Source: a virus (lineage: Duplodnaviria; Caudoviricetes). Taken from it: a stretch of 34,421 nt of DNA. The stretch covers positions 1 to 34,421 of IMG/VR virus record IMGVR_UViG_3300032212_000102, one strand, 5' to 3'. Under the pieces are notes generated by a model. That model did no database searches and was not told the origin of the DNA. It was given only the letters and a program-made list of their open reading frames with translations. Shown piece by piece: positions 680-32,955 of this stretch (positions within the stretch are counted from its first letter, which is position 1; each line of letters starts with the position of its first letter). A program made the translations under genes and the position numbers.

Positions 680-999
680 TGATGAACACACAAGATATTA
701 AAAAGCTGGTTGATAAGGCTACTCAAGGTGAGTGGGAGGCGGATAGCTATGGTGTTTTTATTAGCGTATCTGAAACTGAGGCAAAGTCTATTGCTGATGT
801 GGGCAAGCCAGAGGATAGAAAGCTAATAGCCGCCGCCCCAACAATAGCCCATCAATACATAGAGCGTGAAGAAAGGCTGGTTAAATTGATTAATGGTTGG
901 CGCGATAAGGTTAAAGATTTTCATGATGAAGCTTATACGTATTGGCTAGCCGAATGCGCCGATGAATTAGAGACAATACTAAACAGGCGTGATTCTTAA
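676..999 (+). CDS. Ead/Ea22-like protein
   Basis: IKKLVDKATQGEW...LIAAAP pattern; AGGA RBS. Confidence 0.6.
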   Translation: MMMNTQDIKKLVDKATQGEWEADSYGVFISVSETEAKSIADVGKPEDRKLIAAAPTIAHQYIEREERLVKLINGWRDKVKDFHDEAYTYWLAECADELETILNRRDS

Positions 1000-1551
1000 T
1001 TGTTCCACGTACCCGGCCATCGGGTGGTCAATCGGCCCAGGGTTTCCGGGTATAACGGTGGCCTCTCTCGCATGGCCCCAGGGGCTTAATCCTGTTACCT
1101 GGTCTCCTTCTCGGGCAATTCTGTGACCCTTAATCTGACCGGCTATCTCAGCCAGGCCGCCCGAACAGCACCCAGGACAACCGAAAGTAGTCAGCTCATC
1201 CACTTTAAAGCCATAATGAGACCACAGAGAAGCGCCGTAGACGGCCGCAGCGCCGCCCAAACTATGCCCTGTAAAAACCACGGGCAAACTGTTTACGTAC
1301 AGCTCAGACAATACAGGGCGCAATGTGCGCTGGAAATAGCGCCAGAATCCAAAGTGAACCCATTGCTTTAGCTCTCCAGGCTTCCAGGGAAAGGCCAGAA
1401 TGTCATTGGCACCGTCCCAAATACCATTGGTTCCCGCATAAGCAATGACTAATCTACCATCAATTTCTCTTATCAGGACGGACGCATTACCTATTTTAAT
1501 CGTGGGCATATCATAGGCATCAAGGGAGGCCTGGGCCAGCTTGATAGTCAT
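979..1551 (-). CDS. Class 3 lipase / alpha-beta hydrolase
   Basis: VIAYAGT, VHFGF, nucleophile elbow FTGHSLGG, TFGCP, GDQV and C-terminal DH. Confidence 0.9.
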   Translation of the reverse strand: MTIKLAQASLDAYDMPTIKIGNASVLIREIDGRLVIAYAGTNGIWDGANDILAFPWKPGELKQWVHFGFWRYFQRTLRPVLSELYVNSLPVVFTGHSLGGAAAVYGASLWSHYGFKVDELTTFGCPGCCSGGLAEIAGQIKGHRIAREGDQVTGLSPWGHAREATVIPGNPGPIDHPMAGYVEQLRITPV

Positions 1552-2249: not shown

Positions 2250-3614
2250 TTATTGGTATTGAATGTTTATCGAGCCACCGTCGAAATTTCCGCCGCTGAC
2301 CGCCACGCTAAGCTGTGTAAATTCACCAGACAATTCTTTGCGTCCTGTACAGTGAGACACATTAGAGTTTTGCTCGTCGCCTATATTGCCCTCAAGTATC
2401 CAGTGGTTGCCGTCCTCATTTGTCAGGGTTATAGAGCCGTTATAAGTAGGTGTCGCCTTACTTGGTGTAATGGCAAAATACGCCGTAATAGCCAGGCCAA
2501 GCACTTCACAGGTATTAGTGCCCGTAATGGTAGAGGTTCGGCTTGTATAGCCTGACGTTTCAAGACCGCCGCTATCGCCAATAGTGAGCTGTAATCCATT
2601 CGTTGAATCAAGTGAAACCGCGTTAAATGAAATGGTTATTTTCTTAGTTCCAGATGGTGCGCCACTAAAAGTTTTAGAGGTGCCGGATGCTGTGGATTGA
2701 GCTGTATCATTCGTAGGCTTTCCCGCCGTGATGGCTTCACCCGATGCGAGAGCGTATCCAGTACAGCGCCAATCACCGGAGGCGTACTCTGTGAACTCGA
2801 ACTCATCGCCAGCCGAAGTCGTGTAATTTGCAGCACCCGGTATAATTAAATCAGTGGCATGGTGGGTCAGGGTAACGGCATCATCAAAGTGCAGCGTAAT
2901 GACTGTGCCCACTACGCCTGTGGTCGAAATCGAGGTTATTGTGGTGGTGCCGGTCACATCAAAATAATTACCGTCTGCGCCTATAGCGAGCGCAGTAGCT
3001 GAGGCTATGTCTGTGCCTTTGCTTTGCCTTATTGGTTGCGAATTACAGTCAAGCGGGCCGCCTAATTGTGGCGTGACATCCTCGACCAAATTACCAATAG
3101 CACCGGCCGCACCCTCGGGGGTGCCCCATAAAAGCTGAGTCCCGTCAGTGGTCAGGTATTTATCATTAACCAGTATTGGCAAGTTAAGACTACCGGCAGC
3201 CGAGGTCACTTGCGTTTTTAAACACAAATTAGCAATATCTGATTCAACCTGCTGAACCATCATGATTAACTTATCAAGGTCATCATTAAATGATTCGGAT
3301 GCCAGGTCTCCCAGGTTCTGATAGTCGCTGACTCGCTTAACAGCCAGGTCCCGCTCAATGGTAATAATGTCGCCAGCCGCTGCACCCGTTACCAGGACAA
3401 CATCACCGCCACCAGACACGCCAGCATTTGTAACTGTGTAGTTAGTGGTTAGGGTTAAAATATCAGTATCATCGTCAGGGTCTGCGCCTGACAGGGTTTG
3501 ATAGACCTTTAAATCCGCGTCCTCAAATATCTCAAAAGGATAAGCGAACGTGGTTTGTGATGCGCTCGCGGTATATTGAACGCGCGGCGTGGTGTCATTA
3601 ACTAAAAGACTCAC
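2250..3614 (-). CDS. Tail fibre protein with T7 gp17-like N-terminal adaptor
   Basis: PRVQYTASASQTTFAYPF...DLDKLIMMVQQ N-terminus; Thr/Gly/Ser-rich body; last structural gene. Confidence 0.88.
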   Translation of the reverse strand: MSLLVNDTTPRVQYTASASQTTFAYPFEIFEDADLKVYQTLSGADPDDDTDILTLTTNYTVTNAGVSGGGDVVLVTGAAAGDIITIERDLAVKRVSDYQNLGDLASESFNDDLDKLIMMVQQVESDIANLCLKTQVTSAAGSLNLPILVNDKYLTTDGTQLLWGTPEGAAGAIGNLVEDVTPQLGGPLDCNSQPIRQSKGTDIASATALAIGADGNYFDVTGTTTITSISTTGVVGTVITLHFDDAVTLTHHATDLIIPGAANYTTSAGDEFEFTEYASGDWRCTGYALASGEAITAGKPTNDTAQSTASGTSKTFSGAPSGTKKITISFNAVSLDSTNGLQLTIGDSGGLETSGYTSRTSTITGTNTCEVLGLAITAYFAITPSKATPTYNGSITLTNEDGNHWILEGNIGDEQNSNVSHCTGRKELSGEFTQLSVAVSGGNFDGGSINIQYQ

Positions 3615-4123
3615 GATAAACCTCCAAGGCCATGATTATTATGAAACCCAAACTCTAAATTAGCTTTTTCTCTTGCCTCTTTGGCCTTATTTATGTCGCT
3701 AAAATACCCAAGATTTTTTGTTTTTCCTTTTATCTTTATACAAGCAAGCCATTTGTTGGCCTGCTTTGCCCAACTTACACCCAAGACGCCGCTTGTATTA
3801 TTCTTTGCAAGACTTAGATTTTTTTGGTTTTCTTTGCTTGTTACGTTCCTTAAATTAACCCATCTGTTATCGCTTTTAATGTGGTTAATATGGTCAATAT
3901 GCTTAGGCCATTCGCCTGTAACATAGAGCCAAGCCAATCGGTGCGCGGTGTATTTTTTACTATCCACCATTATTTGCGGGTAAAGGTTTTTTTCTTTTTT
4001 GCCAATAATTGCGCCCTTTAATGACCTGGAGGAAGTGGTTACAAGCCTTTTAAATAAACCAGTTTCAGAGTTATATTCAAGCAACTCCATAAGTCTTGTT
4101 TGCGTTAGCTCTTTATCAGACAT
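3611..4123 (-). CDS. HNH homing endonuclease with AP2-like C-terminus
   Basis: AHRLAWLY, IDHINHIKSDNRWVNLR, NTSGVLGVSW, LGYF motifs. Confidence 0.92.
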   Translation of the reverse strand: MSDKELTQTRLMELLEYNSETGLFKRLVTTSSRSLKGAIIGKKEKNLYPQIMVDSKKYTAHRLAWLYVTGEWPKHIDHINHIKSDNRWVNLRNVTSKENQKNLSLAKNNTSGVLGVSWAKQANKWLACIKIKGKTKNLGYFSDINKAKEAREKANLEFGFHNNHGLGGLS

Positions 4124-6909
4124 TATTCATCCTCCAGTAATTCTTGCTGCTCAGGTTCAAGGGCTTCGACGCCAAACATGAGTGATTCTTTTTTAGCTCT
4201 GCGAGTCTGTAGCCTCAATCTCAAATCGTCGTTTTCATCTTCAAGCTCAAGGCGCGCCCACTTGTCGAAATTCTTTTGCACGTCCTTTAGCAAAGTGGCT
4301 TGCATATCAGGAGTGCCATCCTCGTAAATCGGACTGTTTATGGTTGACTCCAGGGCCTGATAAAAGGTCTCGCCTTCGCCGTTCTCTACCGTCTTACGAG
4401 ACAGGACCATCAAATCATAATATTCCCTGGTCGAAAGCTTTACGCCGTCAATACGTCTTGATGGGCGGGTTACTGGAACAGTGCGTGATTCGTTCATTAC
4501 CCGGACCACCTCAAGCTTTACTTCATCGCTGGTCTGAGTCGAATCAGGGAAAGGACTCATGATGCCTAACAAGCTTCCGGCCGGATGATATCTAGGGTCT
4601 CCGTATATATCCAGGTTAGCCGGTACATCATCAATATAACCTGGAAAGCCCGAGTTTCGCTTCATCTTCTCGGTCAAGGTCCAGGCTGTTCGGGCATAAG
4701 GGTCTGATATTTTGCTAATGTCGCGGCGCATACCTGAGAACGGAATTTGTGCCGTTAGCATATTTTGGCCCCATGTTTTTGCATAGCGTCCTGGGTCATC
4801 CATCATATGGGTAAAATCAGCAAGGCCCTGCAAAAAGGTCTTGTTCATGGTGTTTTCAGCAATGGCCGCAATGACGGCTGTAGATATTTCAGTTACGCGC
4901 TCATCATCCGTATCAAGCTCATCATCGCCATAGTTTTGAATTTCCACCATATCGGCAACCGCACCAATAACATAAGCTAGCGGCTCAGCGCGCTGGTAAC
5001 TCTGGTATGTTCTTTTTCCGGTGAACGGGTTTGTGTAAACGATTGAATAAGGCCGCCAGCCTATCGCCTCTAACGCTTCCCGCGCCCGTGGATTGGAAGG
5101 GCCACCGCCAGTAATCTGACCATTAGCGGCATACTGGCTAATAGATGCGGCAGTAAGGCTTCCCATTGAAACGCGAGCAAGGGCCATATCACGGGCTGCA
5201 CCTCCGGCGGCTAAGTCCTGGTGAAATTTACGGGTAAAAACGGCAATCGGGCTGCGCTCTAATATACCCGCCTTAAAGATATTAACAGGCGTACGAATAA
5301 ACGGCGCAATGAATCGAGCGCCTGGTGTTTTGTTAATGGCTTTCTGCCACGCTCTGCCTGTCTCACCTAATGGGTTTTGAAAAGTATTATACAGGGCTGC
5401 GGCCTGGGCTTCATCAATCGCCTGTTGTGGCGGGTTACGCATGAACTCTTGTATAACCTTGGCGGCATCATCAGGGTTTCCTGATAGGGACGTTACCCGG
5501 TCGGCTTCACGGTATGCTTGCCTTGCTAAATCGCCGTTGCGGGCAAAGACTTTAAACATTTCATCAACCGGCAACATAATGCGCTCAGTCGGGAACCGGA
5601 TAATAGTACCCAATAAATCAACCGCCCGGCCCATTGTGCCTGACATTTCCAGGTTATCAGCCGAGATAGCTTTATTCACTGTGCCCTCGAACTTCATCAC
5701 CTGGTCAGATGGCTCGCCTTTCACAAATGCGGTGCGGGCTGCTTTTAAGGCTTGACGCCAGGAGTACATGGCACCATACATATGGGCAGATGCCTCACCG
5801 ACTGCCACGCCTTCCTCGGTCCGCAAGAATCGACCGATACGGGCGGCTACTGCTGTCTCCGCAATATTCATACCCTGGAATAGCGCATTGCCAGACGTGT
5901 TAATAATATGAGTTTTTACGCCAGATAGAATCGAATTAATGAAATTCTCAATCAATGCTGACTGTACTTTTTCCATGCGGGATGATTTGGTTAGCTTATT
6001 AAGGCCTTCGATAGAATCAACATGCTCAAGCTGCTGGGCTGTTTTCATCAAATCATCAGCGCCGCCTGTGGTTTCCACAAGCTCGGCAACACGGGCAATA
6101 TCACGCGGATTGGTGCCGGTCGGGATGCCGAACGCATTTAACGAGCGGCCAGCCTCAGCACGGGCACCCATTAACTGGGCCTGATACTCGCGGTGAAAAT
6201 CAAGCTGGCGCCGAAACTGTAGCTGTTCAATTTGTGACGCCTCACCACCTCTTACTTTTTGAGCTAGGTCAAGGATTCGCTTCGCGCTTGATGCTAGCAC
6301 TTGACGGGATGCCAGGATAACTTCCGGCCCAAAGGCCTCACCGGCCTGACGCCGCAACACGGTTTCAATCACCTCCTCATCAGTCCCAAGCTCATCAGCC
6401 AGGGTCTGCAATTGGTCTCTGGAGATTTTGCCACGGCGCGCCTGGTTAATAGCGCCCTTGTTATCCTCGGCCACCTGACCGATAACCGACTTAATATCAT
6501 CGGTGGTATCAATCTGGTCAAAGTTAATTTGATGGTCATCAAGCTGGTTATAATTCTTAAAGTCCAAATCCAGTACGCTGTCAGCTCGCTCCTGTAATCC
6601 TTCCTGGACCGCCTCTTTTTGAGTGACCTCCTTGGATAGCTCTTTTTTGGTGCGGTATAGCGGGGCTTTTGTAACTGTCTTTTTCCCCAGCTCCTCAGCG
6701 CCTTGCCTAAATAGCTCTTTTAAAAATGGCGTAGCGCCGCCGGCCACCTTTTCCTGTTGGCCGGTCTCAGCAGTGAACGGGGTAGGCTCGACACCTTCCC
6801 GGCTTTCGGGCTGCGCCTCCAGTGGGTCATCAGTTACATTACCCATAATCTGGACCTGAACGCCGTCCTTAAAGTCTGTCTGTGATACTACTCCGCGCTT
6901 ATTTGCCAC
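4123..6909 (-). CDS. Large internal virion (ejection) protein, T7 gp16-analogous, probably the C-terminal portion
   Basis: 928 aa, helical and Ala-rich; INSILSG..TH..N, PFIRTPVNI, GQITGGGP...GWRPYS and NKTFLQG motifs recalled from podophage internal virion proteins; lies before the tail fibre. Confidence 0.75.
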   Translation of the reverse strand: MANKRGVVSQTDFKDGVQVQIMGNVTDDPLEAQPESREGVEPTPFTAETGQQEKVAGGATPFLKELFRQGAEELGKKTVTKAPLYRTKKELSKEVTQKEAVQEGLQERADSVLDLDFKNYNQLDDHQINFDQIDTTDDIKSVIGQVAEDNKGAINQARRGKISRDQLQTLADELGTDEEVIETVLRRQAGEAFGPEVILASRQVLASSAKRILDLAQKVRGGEASQIEQLQFRRQLDFHREYQAQLMGARAEAGRSLNAFGIPTGTNPRDIARVAELVETTGGADDLMKTAQQLEHVDSIEGLNKLTKSSRMEKVQSALIENFINSILSGVKTHIINTSGNALFQGMNIAETAVAARIGRFLRTEEGVAVGEASAHMYGAMYSWRQALKAARTAFVKGEPSDQVMKFEGTVNKAISADNLEMSGTMGRAVDLLGTIIRFPTERIMLPVDEMFKVFARNGDLARQAYREADRVTSLSGNPDDAAKVIQEFMRNPPQQAIDEAQAAALYNTFQNPLGETGRAWQKAINKTPGARFIAPFIRTPVNIFKAGILERSPIAVFTRKFHQDLAAGGAARDMALARVSMGSLTAASISQYAANGQITGGGPSNPRAREALEAIGWRPYSIVYTNPFTGKRTYQSYQRAEPLAYVIGAVADMVEIQNYGDDELDTDDERVTEISTAVIAAIAENTMNKTFLQGLADFTHMMDDPGRYAKTWGQNMLTAQIPFSGMRRDISKISDPYARTAWTLTEKMKRNSGFPGYIDDVPANLDIYGDPRYHPAGSLLGIMSPFPDSTQTSDEVKLEVVRVMNESRTVPVTRPSRRIDGVKLSTREYYDLMVLSRKTVENGEGETFYQALESTINSPIYEDGTPDMQATLLKDVQKNFDKWARLELEDENDDLRLRLQTRRAKKESLMFGVEALEPEQQELLEDE

Positions 6910-7087
6910 GTTGCATCCTCGTTAATAAATCATCACGGCCATCCATAGCCTCAGTTAGCATGATGGTCAACGCCTCACTTGCGGCATCGTCCTGGCTCAT
7001 ACCATCATTTTTTACCAGGTCGCTCATAATTGACTTGGCTTCCTCTCTATCCTCTTTGGATAGTTTTCTAAATGCTTTCGTAATCAT
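6899..7087 (-). CDS. Hypothetical protein
   Basis: GGAG RBS; overlaps both neighbours in the operon. Confidence 0.7.
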   Translation of the reverse strand: MITKAFRKLSKEDREEAKSIMSDLVKNDGMSQDDAASEALTIMLTEAMDGRDDLLTRMQRGK

Positions 7088-7446
7088 ACGGCTCCTGATT
7101 CGTACATAGCCATAATAATAGCTATTAACTCATCATCCTCCTTTTTACGTTTGGCGATAATGCCATCAACACCGTAATAGCCTGGAGTATGCTCATCAAC
7201 CTCCTCAGCCACTTCGACCGGAGTTAAGTGCCTGAACTCCAGCCTGTTGTCATATCTGACCTGGTATCGGTGAATACCTGGGGAAACAGCAGTGACAACC
7301 GGCGTAACATGCCTAAATTCAAGCTTATGACTCGGCGTTACATTGGCCTGTTTGACATAATTAACGGCAGGGGCGGCAACAGCAGTAACAAAGGTCGCTG
7401 CTATCGCGCTAGTTACTAGACCCTTTCTACCCCATCGAATAATCAT
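7084..7446 (-). CDS. Hypothetical protein (start revised to 7446)
   Basis: ATGA overlap with the upstream stop; internal repeat LEFRHVTPV/LEFRHLTPV; C-terminal EDDELIAII. Confidence 0.65.
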   Translation of the reverse strand: MIIRWGRKGLVTSAIAATFVTAVAAPAVNYVKQANVTPSHKLEFRHVTPVVTAVSPGIHRYQVRYDNRLEFRHLTPVEVAEEVDEHTPGYYGVDGIIAKRKKEDDELIAIIMAMYESGAV

Positions 7447-8390
7447 GAGCGTGTAATCACCGAAATAATTGTGTCGTCGCAATCTGTTGCTGAGAATTTA
7501 TAGGTAATTTTATCGCCGTTGGTATCGGCTGCGGTCATGTCAATTTGGTAAACGCCATCGCTGACCTCGGCAATCGTGCCATTAGTGCTGACAAATGCAG
7601 CGCCGTCGATGCTCATTTCACCCGTCACTGTTTTAGATGTGGCTGCGGTATAATGGTCTGAGGTAAGCACCATCGGGAACTCGAAATTGTCACAACCAGC
7701 GTTTTTAACGATGCCAGCAGGTTCTGTTAATGCTGCGATAGACGCCGGTAAAGTCGTTCCGGTATCGACCAGAATATCATCCACAATGCCGTCTATGATG
7801 TCTTGTTTGGCTTCCGTTGCCGCGTTATCAGTGCCGCGCATATCTGTATTGGTGGTTGTGGTCGCTACAAGGGTGACATTATCAATAGCACCCGCTGTGG
7901 TATTGATTGATGCCTCGGCCATACGAGAATCAACTGCGGTCTTGATAGCCCCTAGTCCGTCTGTAGCGTTGGAAAGGTCTGTTTGTATACCATCCACAAC
8001 TGTGTCAACCGTTGCGAGCGCCGCTGCTGTGGCGAGTGCTGCGTCTGTAATAGCAGTATCACATTGAGCGTTTACGTCTGCTGCTGATACGTTCTCAAGT
8101 CCTAAGTCTGCCGTAGTCGGGTCGAAGCTAACAGGCCATACATTAACGGTCTGAGATACCGCTCCTGTTAGAACTTGAGTAAAGGCTACATGGTCGCCGT
8201 TAGTCTCTGCTTGTGCTGGTACGTAAGACCATTGGCCGTTGCCTTCATGGGCAGAAGTGCCTGCACCTGTGCCTTGTGTACCGCCGTCTATAGTGTAGTA
8301 AACGGTTGGGGTTCCGGTAGTGACATCAGAACCATCTGTTGTGCTAATGGCCTGAAATGATACGGTTTGACTTGCTACATTTTTACGCAT
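7443..8390 (-). CDS. Putative virion structural protein with two similar beta-rich end domains
   Basis: N-terminal (KNVASQ...EGNGQWSY...AETNGD) and C-terminal (KNAGCD...VSDGVYQ...ADTNGD) segments resemble each other; Thr/Ala/Asp-rich linker. Confidence 0.65.
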   Translation of the reverse strand: MRKNVASQTVSFQAISTTDGSDVTTGTPTVYYTIDGGTQGTGAGTSAHEGNGQWSYVPAQAETNGDHVAFTQVLTGAVSQTVNVWPVSFDPTTADLGLENVSAADVNAQCDTAITDAALATAAALATVDTVVDGIQTDLSNATDGLGAIKTAVDSRMAEASINTTAGAIDNVTLVATTTTNTDMRGTDNAATEAKQDIIDGIVDDILVDTGTTLPASIAALTEPAGIVKNAGCDNFEFPMVLTSDHYTAATSKTVTGEMSIDGAAFVSTNGTIAEVSDGVYQIDMTAADTNGDKITYKFSATDCDDTIISVITRS

Positions 8391-10024
8391 TAGCTGAAAC
8401 CTTGCATTGATTGTGTAATGGTTGCGTTAGCAGCCCAAAAAGGATTAAAGCCGCTTTCTTCTGCTGCTGCCGCGCCTGCTTCTATGTATTGGGTGTAGGG
8501 TTGCAGGATTTGGTAGGGGTTATGGTTTAGCTCGCGCACCTCTGTGGCACTCAAGCACCTGTCATAAACAACAACTACGGATATGTGATTATTCCAGTGA
8601 TTCTGTTGACCTGTTGAGAACGTAACAGCGCCGATAGTAAGTGTGTCTAGTCCTGAAAAAGTTAAATTTGATGCGTTGGTAGTTGTTCCCCTTGCAGAAC
8701 CGTCATCATAGACCCCGTTAATGTATGCCGTAATGGGCTGGCCCGATTGCTGGACAGAACAGATGCTGTACGGATTTGGTGAGGTGTTGATGGTATAGGC
8801 AGAGTCGACAATGTTGTTATTTGTTCCATCGTTGTTGTTTACTCTAGCATAGCCCGACACCACCCTCCCGAGCGAGACTCGAACATTAGTCGTTGTGCTA
8901 TCCGATAATGTTGCTGCTCTTAAATGAGTGCCGCCTGTTAAAACTTCACTATAAACCTTTGTGAATATAGTAGATTCTGCACCAATATCAAGGGGAATCT
9001 TAAAGTAATCATTGCTGCCGTCAAACTTGAGCTGCCTCTCTCCATCTTTAACTTCTAGGCTGGTGGCCTCTCCTGAATACAGCCTACCAGAAACTGCATC
9101 ATATACGCTATTTATGTGCGGTAAATGAATAATTACCGCAGCCAACCCCTTGCTCAAAGGATTGCCCCAATTAACACCAGCCGGATAATTGGGCTTTCTG
9201 GTATGCCTACGCTTTAGGGGTATAAGATAACTACCTGTGGCGGCTGCTACTGGTACAGATGCCTCTATTAGCTGGGTGTAGGGTTTGTAAACAATATTAG
9301 GGTTTGCGCTTAATGCTAAACCCTCCGCTTCATTAAAAGCTCTGCCGAACAAATGAAGATAAGACATATCCCCATGAAACGAATTACCAAACGCGCCATT
9401 AAAGACTGTACCAATATTCGATTCTTTAAATGATGATGTTGGGGCTGATGTTGACGACCCTGTATTTGTACCGACCTTGACGCCGTTTACATATAAAGCG
9501 GACGCACCTGCGGCATCAACGGTATACACACAGTCGTACCATTTTGACTGAGTAAGATTGTGTGTAATATTATTTACGTTAAATGTACCGACCGCGCAAG
9601 TTAAATCGCCGTTGGTATCTAAAAATATATAAAGCCCGTTAGTGCCGTTCTGGAATCCCCACTCGAAAATGCCAAGCTGGTCGCCCGGGGTTACATCATC
9701 AGCCTTGATGCCAAATGAAACTGTAATCGGAGCGGCGGCATATGTACCAAAGACAGCATTCCACGCATCACCAAATAAATCATCGTTAATGTATTCGGCA
9801 TCAGATGAATCAGAAGATGCGAAATGTGCGCCTATCCCTTTTGTTGTAGCGACTTGCGTTACAGCATTGTTAACCCATACAGGTTTTACTTTACCCTCTG
9901 CCCTTTCTGGTCTGTCGGAAAAAGTATTACTAAACGCATGGCTACGCATTAAGGTAGAGCTATAGTCTAGCTCAGGTTTATTAGGCTTCCTTACATGCCT
10001 ACGCTTTAGGGGTATAAACTCCAT
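8390..10024 (-). CDS. Tandem LamG/concanavalin-like domain protein (putative receptor-binding or decoration protein)
   Basis: Two modules with W..VYT...ALYVNGV / AYINGV and F.G.M...FGRAF / YDRCLS..EV motifs. Confidence 0.85.
   Translation of the reverse strand: MEFIPLKRRHVRKPNKPELDYSSTLMRSHAFSNTFSDRPERAEGKVKPVWVNNAVTQVATTKGIGAHFASSDSSDAEYINDDLFGDAWNAVFGTYAAAPITVSFGIKADDVTPGDQLGIFEWGFQNGTNGLYIFLDTNGDLTCAVGTFNVNNITHNLTQSKWYDCVYTVDAAGASALYVNGVKVGTNTGSSTSAPTSSFKESNIGTVFNGAFGNSFHGDMSYLHLFGRAFNEAEGLALSANPNIVYKPYTQLIEASVPVAAATGSYLIPLKRRHTRKPNYPAGVNWGNPLSKGLAAVIIHLPHINSVYDAVSGRLYSGEATSLEVKDGERQLKFDGSNDYFKIPLDIGAESTIFTKVYSEVLTGGTHLRAATLSDSTTTNVRVSLGRVVSGYARVNNNDGTNNNIVDSAYTINTSPNPYSICSVQQSGQPITAYINGVYDDGSARGTTTNASNLTFSGLDTLTIGAVTFSTGQQNHWNNHISVVVVYDRCLSATEVRELNHNPYQILQPYTQYIEAGAAAAEESGFNPFWAANATITQSMQGFS
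8490..9285. repeat. 13-bp direct repeat TGGGTGTAGGGTT (8490..8502 and 9273..9285) at the C-terminal edge of each LamG module
   Basis: Exact match read from the sequence; encodes PYTQ. Confidence 0.85.
9203..10017. repeat. 23-bp direct repeat ATGCCTACGCTTTAGGGGTATAA (9203..9225 and 9995..10017) at the N-terminal edge of each LamG module
   Basis: Exact match read from the sequence; encodes IPLKRRH. Confidence 0.9.
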
Positions 10025-10134
10025 TAGGCACTCGTAAATTCAACGCCGCGATATTCAAGGTGGTTATTTGTACCTGTTACGTGTAAAGCTGCGCCTGTGC
10101 CTGTGCAAGTTTCTTCTGTGAAATTAGCAAACAT
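10024..10134 (-). pseudogene. 36-aa chimeric remnant ORF (MFANFTEETCTGTG...YRGVEFTSA)
   Basis: Starts 2 nt after the upstream stop and is TAATG-coupled to the LamG gene; its end resembles the end of the 170-aa neighbour. Confidence 0.5.
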
Positions 10135-10136
10135 GG

Positions 10137-10649
10137 TTATGCGCTCGTGTAGGTGATGCCTTGATAAGAGAACAAGCCCGATTGTGCCGCCGCTAACGCG
10201 CCAGTATGGTCGTGAGCAAGGAACAGGCCCCAATAATCAGGCATGATTCCACCAAATAGCTGAGCGATACTAAACGGCTGTATGTAATAAGTAAGACCTG
10301 CTGTTGCAACCGTTACTGATGCAGAGCCGCCAAATCGCAGGCTATTTAATACAGACACATGGCCTAGCGTTTCTGCGCTATCTGTACCATCTAAAACGTC
10401 AATTGCTGTAGTCCCTAAAGATGTATCAGAACCCCACACATAAACATTAATTGTTTGCCCGACTGTTGGGGCTGTTGATGCGTGACCTGTAATACCGTCT
10501 ATGTTAACCAGACAATCCATATAATTATTAGATGAGTTATCAATCTCAGTACATTCCCTGCCTGCCACAAAGGTCGCAGAACCTGCAAGGCTCGATATAT
10601 CGAATGTGATTGCTGTTGCTGCCGTGGTGGTTTGTTTTGTTTCAGCCAT
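10137..10649 (-). CDS. Putative virion structural protein (beta-rich)
   Basis: GAGGG RBS; TAATG coupling; Thr/Ala/Gly-rich. Confidence 0.75.
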   Translation of the reverse strand: MAETKQTTTAATAITFDISSLAGSATFVAGRECTEIDNSSNNYMDCLVNIDGITGHASTAPTVGQTINVYVWGSDTSLGTTAIDVLDGTDSAETLGHVSVLNSLRFGGSASVTVATAGLTYYIQPFSIAQLFGGIMPDYWGLFLAHDHTGALAAAQSGLFSYQGITYTSA

Positions 10650-11083
10650 TATACTACCCTCGCTTGTGTTACATCGCCTTCACGAACTTTAATACCTAGC
10701 TCTTGTGCGCGTGATACTGTGTCGCTACCCATTGAAGTTATTGAGTCTGCCTCTGGTTGAGTAATAAGGCCCGCTGAAACTAAAGCCGATAGACCCAAGT
10801 TAAATGGCTCGACAGTTACATCAATATCAGTAATATGCGGGTTTTCAAACAAAGAAAACACGGCCAGTACAGGCTTGCGTTTGGCCGCACTAGCATCTGC
10901 CTTGGCTTCGATGAAGTCTCCGAGCTTCCCAATACCGCCTAAGTATTTAAGCAGGTCGGATACTTGTACTCGTTTGTTGACGACACGATTGACGGTATTA
11001 AGTGAAGCCGCTGCTTCTGCGTCTGTCATGCCAGCGTAGTTCAACGCTAGCGGGTCGGTCTGTAACTCGTTTTTTAAGCTCAT
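10649..11083 (-). CDS. Hypothetical phage protein
   Basis: GAGG RBS; ELQTDPLALNY...SRAQELG. Confidence 0.75.
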   Translation of the reverse strand: MSLKNELQTDPLALNYAGMTDAEAAASLNTVNRVVNKRVQVSDLLKYLGGIGKLGDFIEAKADASAAKRKPVLAVFSLFENPHITDIDVTVEPFNLGLSALVSAGLITQPEADSITSMGSDTVSRAQELGIKVREGDVTQARVV

Positions 11084-11089
11084 TTAAGG

Positions 11090-11323
11090 CTACCTCAGCT
11101 TATCGTAAATTGGCGTTATTGAGACTATATCACCCTTTTTATCGCGGGTAATGTCGAATCTAATTGGTTTAATCATAAGCATTTTTGCCACTTCGCCCAT
11201 GACTGCCTCATTATGGTTGACGGCCTCGCGCATAGAGGCGATAGCCTGCTCAGCCATACGGGTTGAGTCGTTTTTAGGTTTCTTGGTTAGCGTTTTGAAT
11301 TGTGCTGTGGAAAGCTCTCTCAT
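11090..11323 (-). CDS. Small basic hypothetical protein
   Basis: ATGA overlap with the 721-aa gene; GAGGGG RBS; C-terminal ITRDKKGDIVSI. Confidence 0.7.
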   Translation of the reverse strand: MRELSTAQFKTLTKKPKNDSTRMAEQAIASMREAVNHNEAVMGEVAKMLMIKPIRFDITRDKKGDIVSITPIYDKLR

Positions 11324-13485
11324 AGCAAGCCCCCCTCAAAGTGGTCAATCAGGTCGCTTAGCTCTGTGAAATACTGCTCTGGTTTCTTCCCCTCAAGCAA
11401 GACAAAGGCATCCGGGCCGTCATCATAAAAGAATGATGCAACCTTTTTGCCTTTTTTATTTACTACCTGGTGAGTTTCGTCAGGCGTTTTAGCCTTAATA
11501 AAGTCGAACCTGGAGCCTTTTATCTTACCGGCTCCGGCCCATTTCTTGGCGTCTAGTAATCTCTCACTGGAAACACCACCGGGATTGGCAGCCGCTTCTT
11601 GCTCAGCTCCTCCTCCCGCTCCTTTCTTGCTTTGGCCGCCGTTTCGGGCGAGAACACTACCGCCTTGCCCTTGGCCGATTTCTTTGATGGTTTTCGCTTG
11701 CTCATTAATAACCTCCTTATCATGGAACCTAGTATATAGGGAATCATCGAGAATTTCCAGTTTCCCGCCCTTGCCTGACATTGCAATATGCACTGGTATA
11801 TCGGCATTGTTGTCGAACAGCAAGGCCTCATCGACTAACTTTGCATAATCCTCGAAGGCACCCGAAAATCCCTTGTGTGCGGCCAGCATATCGCCACCTG
11901 GCACAAATCTGTAGCTAGCAAGGCCTCTTGTAACCGCTCTTTTAACGGCTTCCTCGGGGTCCACAGTGACGCCTATCAGCCGTACCTCATAGCCCGCGCT
12001 TTTAAGCTCCTGGATTTTTGTAATACCCTTGGTTTTGTCTCCGAGCGTTACGTCCAGGAGAATATCCGTTTTCTTCGTAATAGCCTCGGCCTGCAATTTC
12101 TTAGCTAAATCACTAGACTCCTCATGAGTTATCTCAGCCGCACGTCCATCGCCAGCCTCGATAATCTGCTTGTACTCAGGGATGGCCTCTTTTATGTCAT
12201 CGGGATTAATCTCCACCACCCCTTTATCTGGAATGTGGCCCTCCTGGCGTAGCATCTTGACAATAGTGCCCTTACCGGATGCGCCACCGCCACCCATGAC
12301 ATAGGCCACCGGATTGCGGTCCGTCACGGTTACGCCTTGGGCAAGCCTTTCATTAACTATATTTTCCCGTATAGCCAGGCGCTCAGGGCTTTTATCACCG
12401 ACCCTGGATTGTAGCAATGGGTCGCCTTCCTGTAATCGCTTCGGTGCGTCCGGCATACCAAAATTAACGGCATTTTCATCTATTGCCTCGTCACCTTGCA
12501 TGATGCGCTTAGCTCTGCCCAGGTCAGTTTCCCGCTGTAGTTTTACGGCTGAGTCTCTGAACTGGTATTGAGTCGGCAATCCTGGCACCTCTGGACCTGT
12601 TGGGAGACCTGTTCCACGTGGAACATCAGGCGCGTCAAGTAAAGCGCCGTCACTTGGCGCTGGTCCGGTTTGCCCTTTCAGGTCATCAGGTGTCACCGGG
12701 CGGCCAATTTCTGTGGTTTTAGGCGTATTAAACCGCTTAAATCTCTGCAATGCCTTCATTGTCATGGCTGCTGAGTGAAAGGCGAGCGCCAGAGTGCTGG
12801 TAATTCCCGTATTTTCTATGATGTTTTTCAGTCTGCCCTCTGAGTCGGTCTCGTTTTGATTGTCGGCAAGCCAATCTATAAACAGGTTATCAACACCCAT
12901 TTCCTTAACAAGCGATGATAATCGCTCCATATGAGGGTCGATGGCTGTGCCTGACGTGATGATTTCTGCGAGTACCGCATTAAAGGTCGTACTGGTTTTG
13001 ACGCCGGATGCAACTGATACCGCCTTTGCGCCTTTCATATACAGGCCAAATGGCGCTATAAACTTGGTCATTTCCTGAGTAATTTTATCCACATTATCTC
13101 GGGGCTGCATTTCCTGGACCATCGCGTTATACCAATCAGGCATTTCGCGCTCCATCCACTCATTAGCCTGGTCGATGTTTTCTTTACCCACGGCAAGCTC
13201 AAGCGTGTTCTCAATGGCACCGGCAAGGCCACCGGCTACGTTTTGAGTGCCGCGCACCGCTGTTTCTGCAATGGCTTTTACTGCGCCATGCATTTCTTCC
13301 CTGGGGTCAGGCTTTTCCTCTGATATTGGTTTTTCAGCAGGTTTTATTTCATCAAGCTCAGTCTGTACCGCTGTTTGACGGTCAATCTCACGCGCTTTAT
13401 CCAGGGATTCTCTCTCCTGGGCAGCCTCAAGCCCGCCCTCAGAGTAGCGTGGATTTGATGCATAGGCCTCATAAGCGTTATTCAT
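11320..13485 (-). CDS. Internal virion protein fused to a zeta-toxin-like P-loop kinase domain
   Basis: Position in the ejection-protein block; Walker A GGGGASGKGT (~aa 398-407), INPDDIK, THEES, LLDVTL, R....RFVP, LFDNN. Confidence 0.85.
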   Translation of the reverse strand: MNNAYEAYASNPRYSEGGLEAAQERESLDKAREIDRQTAVQTELDEIKPAEKPISEEKPDPREEMHGAVKAIAETAVRGTQNVAGGLAGAIENTLELAVGKENIDQANEWMEREMPDWYNAMVQEMQPRDNVDKITQEMTKFIAPFGLYMKGAKAVSVASGVKTSTTFNAVLAEIITSGTAIDPHMERLSSLVKEMGVDNLFIDWLADNQNETDSEGRLKNIIENTGITSTLALAFHSAAMTMKALQRFKRFNTPKTTEIGRPVTPDDLKGQTGPAPSDGALLDAPDVPRGTGLPTGPEVPGLPTQYQFRDSAVKLQRETDLGRAKRIMQGDEAIDENAVNFGMPDAPKRLQEGDPLLQSRVGDKSPERLAIRENIVNERLAQGVTVTDRNPVAYVMGGGGASGKGTIVKMLRQEGHIPDKGVVEINPDDIKEAIPEYKQIIEAGDGRAAEITHEESSDLAKKLQAEAITKKTDILLDVTLGDKTKGITKIQELKSAGYEVRLIGVTVDPEEAVKRAVTRGLASYRFVPGGDMLAAHKGFSGAFEDYAKLVDEALLFDNNADIPVHIAMSGKGGKLEILDDSLYTRFHDKEVINEQAKTIKEIGQGQGGSVLARNGGQSKKGAGGGAEQEAAANPGGVSSERLLDAKKWAGAGKIKGSRFDFIKAKTPDETHQVVNKKGKKVASFFYDDGPDAFVLLEGKKPEQYFTELSDLIDHFEGGLL

Positions 13486-15055
13486 TTTCGAGCCTTTCTA
13501 TTTTGCGCTGGCGTAAATTAAACTGCCTTATATAGTCTTTCGTTTCCTCTGAGCCTAAATCGGCGTTCTCAATCTCCTCGATACTGGTATAAATAACCGT
13601 TTTACCGTCAGAGTCCTTGAACTCAAACTGCTTCTCTTTGGCTTTGTTGAGCTTCTTGGTGCTTACTTCGCCCTTAATCTCTTTAACCAGGTTATCGGCA
13701 ATCTCTGGAGCCTTAACCCTGCGCTCCTCAAGGGGTAGCATGTTGACCTCGTTAAAGTACCTGGTTAATGCCAGGTCGGCTCTGCGAGCATCATCCTGAG
13801 TAACCCTGATACCCTGGACGCCTTTGACAATTCCCAGCGAGGCATTGATGCGGCGCGCTCCTTCGCGGCCCTCCATTGTGCTTCTCCAGTTACTCTTATC
13901 CTCGGTGAGCTTGCGATGCTCATCCAGGATTTGGATTCTGTCGCTCATTTTGAGCCGTTTGTCGGTCATAATTTCTGACTCAGTGAAGCTCAGCAAATCA
14001 GCCTTATAGCCCACCATTGCAACACCATCAGAAAAGGCAGGGCCTTCTGCTTGCGCTGAAATGTAAGTGCGGCCAATCTGAGGGTCGAGCTGGTCATTTC
14101 TTACCATATCCTGGATTCTATCATCGGTTAAATTGCCCGATAACAATAAATCAGTAGCTGTTCGTTCGCCCTGCACCCACCTGGCCGTACGCTCTGCCGC
14201 ATCACGGGCCAGCTCAGCATCCTCGATGGCGTGTGAGTCCTTCATCATCTTGACCATTTCCAGCTCCATCTTTTTACGATATTCCGGGTCACGGTCTCCG
14301 AACTGCTTTTGTTTCTTAAAGTTGTTGATGTATTGAACGGCCTTACCTTCCTGGATGGCTTTCGCCATGCCGCCATAGACGCCAGCATCCTCAATATCGC
14401 GGGTAATGTCCCGGCGCAAAGTCTCGGCTGCTTTAGGGTCCAGCATACCGGCCAGCTCACGGCTATTGGTCAGCGTTATAGCTTTATCGTATGAATTGGC
14501 GGCTATTTCAATTTCACCCTCCTTGGCCGCGTTCATCGACTCGGTTTTGTACAGGTCAACGGCTGTTGATATGGAGGCATCATGCTGCTCGCGCTGGAAA
14601 GTGCGAAGCTCCGAGCTAATCTTAGCGCCTGCTTTTACAATCGCTTGGGCTAGCTCATCCTGAACCAGTGGTTTAATCCTGTCAGGCACCCCTTCCAATA
14701 AGCCCTCGCTATAGGCCTTAGCCTTGGTTTCGTAGGCCACCGGGTCGCGGGCGCTCTCTGACTCAATGCGGCTCAGGTTCTCGAACATATCCAGCTTGAT
14801 AGCAGATACATGCGAGGCTGTAGCGCCTTCATTCCAGGCTCTATCGGCAATGGTATCGCCGTCACGTAATGTGATGACAGTCTTGCCCTGGCCGTCAATC
14901 AGGCCTTTTTCTTTGGCTTTTCTCGCCACTTCCTGGTCGAGCCGGTTTTCCTCTTGCTGCTGAAAGGCAGACAGGCGCTGGGTCAGGCTCTGGAATAGCT
15001 GGGGCGCATTGCTGCGAACCGACTGCTGATTAGTTAGTCTGCTCTGATACCTCAT
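13478..15055 (-). CDS. Internal virion protein (T7 gp15-analogous)
   Basis: 525 aa, helical; position after the gp14-like gene; overlapping start/stop. Confidence 0.65.
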   Translation of the reverse strand: MRYQSRLTNQQSVRSNAPQLFQSLTQRLSAFQQQEENRLDQEVARKAKEKGLIDGQGKTVITLRDGDTIADRAWNEGATASHVSAIKLDMFENLSRIESESARDPVAYETKAKAYSEGLLEGVPDRIKPLVQDELAQAIVKAGAKISSELRTFQREQHDASISTAVDLYKTESMNAAKEGEIEIAANSYDKAITLTNSRELAGMLDPKAAETLRRDITRDIEDAGVYGGMAKAIQEGKAVQYINNFKKQKQFGDRDPEYRKKMELEMVKMMKDSHAIEDAELARDAAERTARWVQGERTATDLLLSGNLTDDRIQDMVRNDQLDPQIGRTYISAQAEGPAFSDGVAMVGYKADLLSFTESEIMTDKRLKMSDRIQILDEHRKLTEDKSNWRSTMEGREGARRINASLGIVKGVQGIRVTQDDARRADLALTRYFNEVNMLPLEERRVKAPEIADNLVKEIKGEVSTKKLNKAKEKQFEFKDSDGKTVIYTSIEEIENADLGSEETKDYIRQFNLRQRKIERLENE

Positions 15056-15663
15056 ACAGTGCCCCGTGCGGTCGTTCTGCTTACAAATCGTGCTGCTTCA
15101 CCGCCTGCGCTCAACAAACTGAACTTGGTCGCATTAGAGGCGTTCTGTTTTAGCTGGTCTATACGGTTGGCCGTATTAAGGGCATCGGTCGACTGGTCCA
15201 GCTCGAAGCGTTCAATATCCTCAAACTGGATGGCCGCCGCACTAGAGCCTTTCTCGAACGTGAAGCCAGATGCACCCGTCCTTACATTTTGTAAAGCTAA
15301 AGCTCTTACCAGGTTACGCTTGCGCTCAATCTGGCGATTTCGGGCATTAAATTGCTCATCTTTGGCCTGCGTCTCCAGGTTTGCTGATTCTGCCTCACCC
15401 TGGAAAAGACGTGATGCAATGCTGGCACCTGCGGCAACATTAGATAAAAGACTGCCGCCGCCGAATAACCCTCCGGCCGTTGCTGCTGCCGTTGCTGCCG
15501 TTGCTGCGCCGACTGTCGTAACAAGGCCTGTGGCCGCTGCTGTAACCGGTAAAGCCGCTGCCGCCGATGTGCCAATAATGGAACCAAAGCCTGCGACCGC
15601 TGGAGCCGCCGCAAATCCCATTTCAATAACAAGGGCTTTTTTAAGATATTTAACCGGATTCAT
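15052..15663 (-). CDS. Internal virion protein (T7 gp14-analogous)
   Basis: Ala/Gly-rich hydrophobic N-terminus, then coiled coil and GASG motif; GAGGA RBS. Confidence 0.75.
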   Translation of the reverse strand: MNPVKYLKKALVIEMGFAAAPAVAGFGSIIGTSAAAALPVTAAATGLVTTVGAATAATAAATAGGLFGGGSLLSNVAAGASIASRLFQGEAESANLETQAKDEQFNARNRQIERKRNLVRALALQNVRTGASGFTFEKGSSAAAIQFEDIERFELDQSTDALNTANRIDQLKQNASNATKFSLLSAGGEAARFVSRTTARGTV

Positions 15664-15676
15664 TGCATATTCCTCG

Positions 15677-15715
15677 TGCTATAATCGGCGCACGGGTGCT
15701 TGAACACCCGGCACC
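15677..15715 (+). promoter_or_regulatory. Extended -10 promoter TGCTATAAT plus leader hairpin for the HNH gene
   Basis: Perfect TGnTATAAT at 15677..15685; CGGGTG-cttgaa-CACCCG stem at 15693..15710; AGGAG RBS follows. Confidence 0.65.
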
Positions 15716-15742
15716 TGACAATGACTTAATAGGAGTAAGCCA

Positions 15743-16249
15743 ATGGCTAAAGATATTATAACCCAAAAGCGTCTTAAGGAATTGCTTAGCTATAACACAG
15801 AAACGGGGCTGTTTACTTGGCTTGTTTCGACCGGAAAAGCCAGAGCAGGGAGTGTCGCCGGAACTACGTCCACCAATGGCTATGTTTATATAACCGCTAA
15901 CGGGACCAGGAGAGGCGCACATAGATTTGCCTGGATGTATGTTTACGGAAAATTTCCTAAAAATGATATTGACCATATTAACCATAATCCCGCTGATAAC
16001 AGGATTTCTAATTTGCGAGAAGTCACTAGAGCTGAAAACATGAGAAACGCATCTTTGAGCAAGGCCAATACTAGCGGCGTAACTGGCGTTGGTTTGTTCA
16101 GGCGAGACAATAAACATCATTCTCAAATAATGATTAATGGCGAGACCATTCATTTGGGCTACTTTGATAACTTCAAAGACGCCGTTGACGCAAGAAAAAA
16201 AGCCGAGATTAAATATAATTTTCATAATAATCATGGTCTTAGGCGCTGA
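15743..16249 (+). CDS. HNH homing endonuclease with AP2-like C-terminus, antisense to the structural operon
   Basis: AHRFAWMY, IDHINHNPADNRISNLR, NTSGVTGV, HLGYF. Confidence 0.92.
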   Translation: MAKDIITQKRLKELLSYNTETGLFTWLVSTGKARAGSVAGTTSTNGYVYITANGTRRGAHRFAWMYVYGKFPKNDIDHINHNPADNRISNLREVTRAENMRNASLSKANTSGVTGVGLFRRDNKHHSQIMINGETIHLGYFDNFKDAVDARKKAEIKYNFHNNHGLRR

Positions 16250-32154: not shown

Positions 32155-32761
32155 TGTAGAACAAGGCTCTGACGAGTGGTATCAGGCCAGGCTCGGCATA
32201 CCTACCTCAAGCGCGTTCGATAAAATCATTACTCCTACCGGGAAACTCTCAGCCTCGTCGGTGGATTATCGAAACATATTATTAGCTGAGTACCTGGATG
32301 GACCGCGTGAGTCTTATTCAACCGATGCAATGCTGCGCGGCCAGGAGCTGGAACCAGAGGCCAGACGGCTCTATGAGTTTACTACAGGCAACCAAGTGGA
32401 GCAGGTCGGGTTAGTTTACAAGGATAAAGAAAAGCTTGTGTCATGCTCACCCGATGGCCTGGTAGGCGATGGCGGGATAGAAATAAAATGCCCGCTGGTC
32501 CATACGCACATCGGATACCTGCTCGGCAATGAGCTGCCAAAGAAATATAAACAGCAGGTTCAAGGCTCTCTATGGGTTACAGGTCAAAAGTGGTGGGATT
32601 TTATGAGCTACTTTCCAGGTAAACCGCCTTTAATAGTCAGGGTCGAACGTGATGAGCCATACATCGAGCTGATTGATAAGTGTATGAATACCTTTATCAG
32701 TGAGCTGGTTTTATGTCGCGAGGCGCTGGATAAAATAACCGAAAATAAAAAGGTTGCATGA
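32141..32761 (+). CDS. YqaJ / lambda-exonuclease-family protein
   Basis: QGSDEW..ARLG.PT.S, G.ELEP.AR, SPDGLV...EIKCP, QVQG.LWV...WDF. Confidence 0.93.
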
Positions 32762-32955
32762 TGCTGATACTTTCAAGACGCCGTGGCGAAACGCTATGCA
32801 TTGGCGATGATATTAAAGTTACCGTTATGGAAATAGTCGGCAACCAGGTACGCATCGGAATCAATGCACCGAAAAGCATTGGCGTTCACCGCGAGGAAAT
32901 TTATAAACGGATTCAATCTGAAAAGAATCGAGGCGAGAACTTCGGTAATAAGTAG
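32761..32955 (+). CDS. csrA: Carbon storage regulator CsrA/RsmA homologue
   Basis: MLILSRR.GE.L.IGDDI.VTV....[12 protein letters not shown]...VHREEIY.RI. Confidence 0.95.

Follow-up and report, generated by a model that had tools for sequence, protein, structure and literature searches.

A zeta/AvrRxo1-family kinase on half of a split phage ejection protein, with a candidate antitoxin gene nested in its coding sequence

Polyvalent virion proteins are predicted to inject toxic enzymes into the host cell, and how the cell that produces them survives had been an open question. This question is raised by a 721-amino-acid (aa) gene on the minus strand of IMG/VR virus record IMGVR_UViG_3300032212_000102 (Duplodnaviria; Caudoviricetes). 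The window, i.e. the whole stretch of 34,421 nucleotides (nt) that we analysed, amounts to the full 34.4-kb genome of a phage, bounded by direct terminal repeats. The 721-aa protein joins one half of an ejection-type internal virion protein to a kinase of the zeta-toxin family, and behind the kinase, in another frame of the same gene, lies a small conserved open reading frame (ORF) that likely encodes an antitoxin. An earlier note on this DNA, made from the sequence alone, had described the fusion and had stated that no antitoxin was recognisable; it had missed the nested candidate. On balance, and by a modest degree, we favour a virion-delivered kinase that would act on an adenine nucleotide, with the nested gene encoding its inhibitor.

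The kinase module and its acceptor

11320..13485, minus strand: 721-aa gene; ejection-type carrier, linker, zeta/AvrRxo1-family kinase module, linker with the nested gene, and C-terminal tail (from sequence and Pfam)
11674..12483, minus strand: mobile kinase module, aa 335-604
Kinase motifs, minus strand, first part: GGGGASGKGT at aa 398 (nt 12294-12265), INPDDIK at aa 426, THEES at aa 453, LLDVTL at aa 476
Kinase motifs, minus strand, second part: RAVTRG at aa 516, RFVP at aa 526, LFDNN at aa 556

The Pfam search that the earlier note had proposed matches Zeta_toxin at aa 386-549 with an E-value of 1.8e-37 and 129 bits (cut-off 22.3), and the motifs it had named are present in the 721-aa sequence in the order it gave. 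It had placed the domain at about 11745..12330; the kinase does lie there, but the conserved module is wider (aa 335-604, nt 11674..12483). A search with aa 340-600 returns 33 proteins, 29 of which, besides the query, are 39-56% identical over 98-100% of the region; the module is therefore about 270 aa long and exceeds the Pfam model.

The AlphaFold model of the module (pLDDT 95.4) has the fold of the zeta/AvrRxo1 group rather than that of another P-loop family, and the catalytic Asp, whose absence would have spoken against the assignment, is present. Foldseek places zeta (E 1.1e-10) barely ahead of AvrRxo1 (1.4e-10). In VIA-align, AvrRxo1 scores Z 19.9 (root-mean-square deviation (rmsd) 3.3, 237 residues aligned), zeta 18.6 (rmsd 3.5, 220 aligned) and PezT 17.5 (rmsd 3.7, 213 aligned), followed by a polynucleotide kinase at Z 13.5. 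Lys405 aligns with Lys46 of zeta and Asp429 with its catalytic base, Asp67, and these two, together with His454, Glu456, Arg520 and Arg526, are invariant in 41/41 aligned copies; the conserved residues of the module comprise His454-Glu456-Ser457, Asp478, Thr480, Arg516/520/526 and His537. The Walker A position after the Lys is Gly406 in the window, and across the 41 copies it is Gly in 30 and Ser or Thr in 9, so that the usual GK[ST] is not found here. Adenylate kinases likewise have GKG, and for this reason we do not read it as decay. Judged from its sequence and model, the domain is a P-loop kinase of the zeta/PezT/AvrRxo1 family with intact catalytic residues and predicted activity.

Polynucleotide kinases are the next fold matches (Z 11-13.5), and the module often adjoins ParB-like and methylase domains, as one might expect of a non-toxic domain that acts on nucleic-acid ends, in polynucleotide-kinase-like healing or protection of the entering DNA or in tRNA repair. 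We consider such a role highly improbable in view of the Z gap of 4-6 to the zeta/AvrRxo1 group and the use of the same clade as a secreted-toxin domain; moreover, a harmless repair enzyme needs no dedicated partner.

The earlier note had put UDP-N-acetylglucosamine (UDP-GlcNAc, or UNAG) and a block of MurA foremost as the target, and the residues do not bear this out. Zeta contacts UDP-GlcNAc through Asp67, Thr118, Arg120, Thr128 and Glu100 (PMC3062530). In the HMMER alignment Asp67 and Thr118 are kept as Asp429 and Thr480, whereas Glu100, Arg120 and Thr128 are replaced by Lys462, Gly482 and Lys490. His454-x-Glu456-Ser457 (HxES) is invariant in the clade, present in AvrRxo1, and absent from zeta and PezT. 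The profile of the module shares the NPD, HxES and D-x-x-L motifs of AvrRxo1, and its alignment with AvrRxo1 spans positions 25-249 of 261, compared to only 40-185 with zeta and PezT. AvrRxo1 itself keeps the ATP-binding but not the UNAG-binding residues of zeta, phosphorylates the 3'-OH of nicotinamide adenine dinucleotide (NAD), and has an acceptor site that is selective for adenine nucleotides (PMC5087710; PMC5491322). Since three of the five UDP-GlcNAc contacts are missing and HxES is shared, an adenine nucleotide is the likelier acceptor of the two. From these comparisons, NPD, HxES and D-x-x-L may bind NAD; we put an adenine nucleotide such as NAD at an even chance and hold a UDP-sugar to be unlikely.

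Not all of the evidence points the same way. The profile E-values are better for zeta (4.8e-15) and PezT (1.2e-14) than for AvrRxo1 (1.4e-9), zeta is narrowly first in Foldseek, and Asp429 and Thr480 match zeta Asp67 and Thr118, the latter being Arg in AvrRxo1; a paper assigning the HxES of AvrRxo1 to NAD binding was not found. In addition, ng_zeta1 is a divergent member that still uses UDP-sugars (PMC10532202). These points would suit a kinase of UDP-GlcNAc or another UDP-sugar that, like zeta and PezT, weakens or stalls cell-wall synthesis, with the nested peptide in the role of epsilon. We rate this quite unlikely, given the three lost contacts and the HxES held in common with AvrRxo1, which does not phosphorylate UNAG, and a few injected copies would be slow to affect the wall. 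Haloarchaea are without peptidoglycan. A distant homolog of the kinase lies in the head-gene regions of haloarchaeal viruses (PMC4284463), i.e. of viruses whose archaeal hosts are of the wall-less type, which also argues against a UDP-sugar substrate.

A nested gene with its own promoter-like signal

11754..11759, minus strand: -35-like hexamer (4/6) of the embedded promoter, by sequence match
11731..11736, minus strand: -10-like hexamer (5/6), 31 nt upstream of the nested ATG, in codons of the kinase's last helix
11711..11719, minus strand: Shine-Dalgarno TAAGGAGGT, 5 nt upstream of the nested ATG, by sequence
11553..11705, minus strand: nested 50-aa gene, candidate antitoxin, in the +1 frame of host codons 594-645 (conserved ORF, start and Shine-Dalgarno)

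The nested gene starts with an ATG at 11705, within the codons for Asn594-Glu595, and its stop is at 11553. The encoded peptide has a basic N-terminus, a charged, helix-like middle and a C-terminal PxVFP-type motif. We counted such frames under fixed criteria, namely an ATG or GTG within 15 nt of the window's start site, a Shine-Dalgarno word, and 45-90 codons. The main set consists of 40 non-redundant internal modules, window included, with 8 loci of >90% identity and the short-match loci dropped. The nested ORF is present in 24/40 of these modules compared to 106/8706 background windows elsewhere in the same genes, and in the +2 frame in 0/40. A held-out metagenome set of 65 loci, from which 21 duplicates and 9 short matches were dropped, left 35, of which 17 are internal; here the ORF is found in 10/17 modules, in 56/3029 background windows, and in the +2 frame in 0/17, although in both sets the loci share ancestry and their counts are thus not independent events. 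None of the bacterial toxin-type copies has it (0/5), and these have Asn-Pro or Asp-Pro at the start site. Stand-alone bacterial kinase copies are followed by a small gene, and homologs of the nested gene occur as separate genes after the kinase in Frankia and other bacteria.

In a leave-one-out analysis, 19/24 nested peptides score above every one of the 306 decoy +1 ORFs. When a profile is made from nested peptides only, 5/13 of the small genes or tails that stand separately downstream of C-terminal or bacterial copies rank above all decoys. Between close variants, the silent differences in the nested frame are 1/4, 3/4, 2/4 and 3/6 vs. 0/4, 0/4, 0/4 and 1/6 in the host frame, for totals of 9 vs. 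1 of 18; the four pairs come from two groups, and three of them are not independent. The BLOSUM excess of the nested frame at the C-terminal motif (17.1 vs. 5.4) was not counted, as the rows were anchored on that motif and the value is biased.

Upstream of the nested start, the window has the promoter-like site TGGAAA-17-TATACT (11759-11731), which matches at 9/12 positions. Among loci selected for the ORF and not for the box, a -10 box (5/6 or 6/6) lies 18-45 nt before the nested start in 29/36, exactly 31 nt in 22 of them, compared to 20/828 windows further upstream in the same domains. The box is mostly TATAAT and comes from the Tyr-Asn codons of the kinase's last helix, where the Tyr codon is TAT in 27/33 cases vs. 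94/239 elsewhere. In the copies without a nested gene (0/14 with a box), the Tyr is kept and the box is not.

By sequence, the nested gene is a small cognate gene that travels with a toxin-family domain, which is the arrangement of a type II toxin-antitoxin system, and it is a likely candidate for the antitoxin or inhibitor of the kinase. Several observations weigh against the nested reading. The fixed criteria are failed by 16/40 and 7/17 internal modules, with a related ORF in 6 of those 16 under relaxed rules (no Shine-Dalgarno or start-window rule), and among the failing modules is P-SS2 ORF030, which alone of the homologs has been seen in virions. Wherever Asn-Glu is coded AAT-GAx, an ATG arises by itself; the region has 4 promoter-like sites of 9/12 where 3.6 are expected by chance, and 8/13 stand-alone downstream genes do not score above the decoys.

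The peptide has no match in Pfam, PHROG, Atlas or PDB. With the nested-peptide profile, AvrRxo2 is not among the 16 chains found at E up to 10, in what is a weak search with a short peptide; the profile finds 33 small unnamed proteins, two of which are the Frankia genes already aligned. The nested peptides are very variable and fall into two or more subfamilies. This variability, and the lack of similarity to epsilon, PezA, AvrRxo2 or any other family, would fit a real gene that is no inhibitor, e.g. a kinase chaperone, an activator, a packaging aid, or an unrelated early gene travelling along, and nested genes also stand behind other (ParB-like) domains of such proteins. We find this very unlikely. 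Small size and a position directly after a toxin-family domain are the antitoxin pattern, the gene has its own promoter-like box as does RnlB (PMC5535158), in Frankia and other bacteria it survives as a gene of its own downstream of the kinase, and the partner of AvrRxo1, AvrRxo2, is its inhibitor (PMC5087710).

The 77-aa gene downstream, which overlaps the stop of the 721-aa gene by 4 nt as the earlier note had said, had been offered there as a weak candidate partner. It is kept (48-53% identical) in 3/3 close relatives without the kinase and is absent from 48/48 viral loci with it, and on both counts we reject it as the antitoxin. An epsilon or PezA gene next to the toxin was not found by Pfam in the flanking 525-aa and 77-aa genes or in the nested peptide.

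Other nested frames were seen in passing. Directly behind their ParB-like (ddrB) domain, the same proteins contain another family of nested +1 ORFs, 46-68 aa long and equipped with a Shine-Dalgarno, at L010:8376, L012:8958, L014:9690, L065:3742 and L084:3370, with no clear -10 box by eye; more real-looking nested ORFs occur elsewhere in the giant hosts L010, L019, L026, L078, L085 and L110. On a Bacillus mycoides plasmid (CP037991.1; L144:2929-3923), a kinase of the wider clade stands alone and is followed by a 46-aa ORF, un-annotated in the gene table, with its own TATAAT and Shine-Dalgarno; the kinase is in 61 plasmid records, 59 of them Bacillus. This ORF scored 4.8 bits vs. a decoy maximum of 11.3 and is not counted as a homolog; the pair comes from a cultured organism and is tractable.

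The carrier, its slot and the genome around it

12730..13485, minus strand: helical carrier, aa 1-252, with homology to gp16-type internal virion protein D (its N-terminal part)
12484..12729, minus strand: Pro/Gly-rich linker, aa 253-334, not conserved in relatives (sequence and alignment)
11320..11550, minus strand: C-terminal tail of the 721-aa protein, aa 646-721
15052..15663, minus strand: 203-aa first internal virion gene, gp14-like by position; no family match
13478..15055, minus strand: 525-aa second internal virion gene, gp15-like by position; no family match
11090..11323, minus strand: 77-aa gene, belonging to the structural block and not to the kinase
4123..6909, minus strand: 928-aa internal virion protein D; C-terminal half of the gp16-type protein, which is split (phrog_6651, E 9.4e-36)

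The 721-aa gene is the third of the internal-virion block, following tail tubular B and the 203- and 525-aa genes, and its first 252 aa are predicted to be all-helical; in both respects the earlier note had been right. Its view of the protein as an ejection protein holds for the carrier, which is homologous to internal virion protein D, but it had missed the remainder of that protein at 4123..6909. For the 928-aa protein there are 52 phage records, many of them annotated as internal virion protein D. A HMMER search with aa 1-252 returned 270 proteins, and among the best 150 of these (query included) the carrier homolog is fused in the same chain to a homolog of the 928-aa protein in 68, e.g. 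P0018 (1078 aa). In a search of 18 proteins, the carrier-homolog profile matches Syn5 gp45 at aa 100-316 (independent E-value (iE) 2.2e-15) and CRP-804 gp34 at aa 160-290 (2.5e-21); in both, the 928-aa profile finds its match in the C-terminal part. The carrier thus has both marks of an internal virion protein D, namely homology to that of cultured podoviruses and a position between the tail tube and fibre genes.

The order 203-525-carrier-77-928 is kept in the three closest relatives, where the carrier is 43-59% identical and the tails are unrelated. The gp16-type protein is not one polypeptide but two genes, here and in 3/3 of these relatives. Across 3500-16500 the assembly contigs are continuous at about 52x, with no joints and no variant letters, in one sequencing run that is possibly of the source sample and hence not independent; together with the split in all three relatives, this led us to reject an assembly chimera or a recent insertion as its cause. 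Long fused forms were absent from a word-index search yet found by HMMER, and a search with the full-length 721-aa protein gave no viral loci, while one with the carrier alignment added a single locus, L142. Other splits in the region of internal virion protein D are seen in cultured phages, namely gp24/gp23 in Methylophilales phage MEP301 (L056) and gp34/gp33 in Pelagibacter phage HTVC028P (L055).

The earlier note had called for a survey of swappable domains at this position, and the kinase slot does hold ART- or GNAT-like domains in relatives. Among 63 of the 150 carrier homologs, picked for long tails or inserts, zeta is found in 3/63, ART-PolyVal in 9/63 (3 over the cut-off) and a GNAT-like domain in 5/63 (1 over the cut-off), with most showing no match; one of the three closest relatives has a weak ART-PolyVal match (E 0.0045). 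In many relatives the cargo is followed by a short amphipathic helix that closes the protein. The kinase module in turn is borne by several unrelated carriers, and a profile-profile comparison of four kinase-bearing carrier types gives no significant homology (best probability 8.7%). Of 48 viral kinase loci, 18 are near podoviral tail or ejection markers, 11 more are in proteins of >1800 aa, and 19 are neither, several of which follow a portal-sized gene. The 721-aa protein itself has one enzymatic domain; other hosts of the module are 700-6100 aa long, with ParB-like, lysozyme and methylase domains. The slot and these other hosts fit the pattern of polyvalent proteins. Bacterial copies of the clade (43-47% identity) are WXG100-type polymorphic toxins and Frankia genes. 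In a quick tree of 96 modules, no well-supported set holds the row of the window, and we claim no donor.

Some of the cargoes deserve mention in their own right. On the same carrier, P0004 bears by eye a truncated protein kinase and GNAT, and P0006 RelA/SpoT-like and ParB-like domains; the stretch after its RelA-like part reads like an off-frame translation, possibly another nested gene. In the bacterial polymorphic toxins L061:4545-10316, L066:4059-10342 and L063:4305-10332 (WXG100_2 in L061 and L066), a 240-aa domain comes after the kinase; a Fic-like H-x-x-x-D-G-C-G-K motif is visible in it by eye, and it has no Pfam match. An HD_4 (SpoT/Mesh1-like) hydrolase gene follows these toxins, with a small partner after it or fused to its C-terminus; the hydrolase could reverse a nucleotide phosphorylation. 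BFVD entry A0A6J5LTH6, a phage protein of 1134 aa, bears the label anti-CBASS Acb1 and matches the kinase fold as well, which suggests a kinase and a 2H phosphoesterase in one protein.

Along the minus strand run terminase, portal, scaffold, capsid, tail tubular A and tail tubular B, followed by the 203-, 525-, 721- and 77-aa genes and next by small and LamG genes, the 928-aa gene, an HNH gene, tail fibre and lysis genes. A repressor-like gene, a replication initiator, and Erf, YqaJ and CsrA-like genes are also present, the CsrA-like regulator at 32758..32955 (plus strand) among early genes. The two halves of the ejection gene are separated by 144-, 170-, 544- (LamG), 315-, 132- and 62-aa genes at 6899..11083, a block that L001 has behind the second half and that is for the most part replaced in L002 and L003; we take it for a mobile module of decoration or fibre genes. 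Two HNH endonuclease genes lie on either side of the internal-virion region, at 15743..16249 (plus strand; recognised by eye only) and 3611..4123 (minus strand; Pfam HNH_3 and AP2 matches), and a Lipase_3 (alpha/beta hydrolase) gene lies at 979..1551 (minus strand), directly after the endolysin.

Proposed course of events and its meaning

The kinase is joined to the N-terminal half of an ejection protein and is therefore likely packaged and injected. In the mechanism that we propose, the 721-aa protein would be made from the late operon and, probably, loaded with the other core proteins through its carrier half. A few copies of the kinase would reach the cytoplasm, where ATP is; T7 gp16 is present at four to six copies per virion (PMC8954989). 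There the kinase would, with chances that we see as evenly balanced, phosphorylate the 3'-OH of NAD or a relative and not UDP-GlcNAc, dampening host metabolism or an NAD-using defence in the first minutes. The nested gene would then be transcribed by the host sigma-70 polymerase without dependence on the late operon, and its peptide would probably bind and stop the kinase, which would end the pulse and also protect the cell when many copies are made late. The order of events would thus be set by delivery: kinase first from the virion, antitoxin once host polymerase reads the DNA, and antitoxin present before the late kinase. The gene would be nested because a module that lies between the carrier and a tail or further domains places 'directly downstream' inside the host frame; toxin, promoter and antitoxin would therefore move as one cassette of about 950 bp.

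P-SS2 ORF030, with 96.5 peptides on average in purified virions (PMC2784084, Table 2), holds the kinase domain (iE 5e-42, 35% identical). Other points speak against this course of events. P-SS2 ORF030 is MuF-type and not an ejection protein, a fold search with the carrier gave no match at E up to 0.001, and a split N-terminal half might escape packaging. T7 gp16-N stays in the periplasm (PMC8954989), where the kinase would lack ATP. Changing the Walker A Thr weakens AvrRxo1 (PMC5491322), and the window has Gly at this position. The mechanism as a whole is derived purely by computation, from sequences and a predicted model.

The pair might instead serve competition between phages or lysogens, the incoming kinase poisoning non-carrier cells and the nested gene, read from its own promoter in a carrier or prophage state, giving immunity, as proposed for MuF toxins. 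We judge this improbable, although it is compatible with a timed kinase pulse and does not exclude it: the complete genome has no tyrosine integrase (serine integrases were not searched for), and a toxin that stops a new host for good would stop the phage too.

Zeta-like kinases in phage virion proteins have been predicted before. Iyer et al. 2017 (PMC5512222) describe one fused to MuF, with cell-wall weakening suggested, among the polyvalent proteins that phages and conjugative elements encode; these are virion-block proteins that have swappable ART, GNAT, ParB, kinase and zeta-like domains and are predicted to be injected. The fusion here is a new member of this predicted kind. It differs in that the carrier is not MuF but the N-terminal half of an internal virion protein D, podoviral and split in two, and in that its residues point away from the cell-wall substrate assumed there; a nested partner is not described in the passages covered, and the word 'overlap' is absent from the main text (supplements not covered). 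Internal virion protein D is known to host cytoplasmic domains and to be splittable into two genes (N4 vRNAP, H66 gp60, the split F116 homolog; Hardies et al. 2016, PMC4819975), whereas here a toxin-family kinase is carried, together with a nested expression unit of its own.

Xanthomonas AvrRxo1/AvrRxo2, a 3'-NAD kinase and its inhibitor (PMC5087710, PMC5491322), is alike in being the top fold match, in the NPD, HxES and D-x-x-L motifs, and in pairing an injected small-molecule kinase with a small downstream partner. Identity is only 17-19%, however; delivery would be by phage and not by type III secretion, Gly replaces Thr in Walker A, and the partner, which lies nested in another frame, is half as large and shows no relationship in a sequence search. 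With epsilon/zeta and PezAT (PMC3062530) the kinase shares Pfam family PF06414, the fold, and the equivalents of Lys46, Asp67 and Thr118, but Glu100, Arg120 and Thr128 are lost, no epsilon/PezA homolog is found, and the antitoxin candidate comes after and not before the toxin. In RnlAB, too, the promoter of the antitoxin lies within the toxin gene (PMC5535158), and the small ORFs that follow MuF toxins are a nearby precedent (PMC5576092). The use of a second frame has its own parallels. Lambda Rz1 in Rz and comS in srfAB are small genes that lie wholly inside another frame. In contrast to RnlAB, Rz1 and comS, a structural-protein gene here encloses the promoter, the ribosome-binding site and the whole frame, and all three travel with a single enzymatic domain. 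In the open-licence literature we came across no account of a podoviral ejection protein that carries a zeta kinase and has a nested partner, and the passages covered of PMC9030533, PMC7824862 and bioRxiv 10.1101/2025.01.14.632903 add nothing on this arrangement; subscription papers and the supplements of Iyer et al. 2017 may hold more. Within this scope, the new part is the nested promoter-plus-partner cassette.

A bolder form of the proposal, which we offer as a tentative and rather doubtful one, is that phages inject an AvrRxo1-like 3'-kinase of NAD (or of ADP-ribose (ADPR) or cyclic nucleotides) as a timed counter-defence pulse, ended by an antitoxin transcribed inside the kinase coding sequence, and that toxic polyvalent ejection domains in general each move with an annotation-invisible promoter-plus-antitoxin unit in the next linker. 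The nested promoter-plus-peptide unit would be a concrete and testable answer to how the producing cell survives. It would also explain why low-complexity linkers exist behind these domains, and the nested peptide would be the one reagent needed to clone and assay such kinases. An entire class of small phage genes would be escaping the gene callers. Should the kinase act on NAD or a related nucleotide, the virion would deliver interference with NAD-centred anti-phage defence before any phage gene is expressed.

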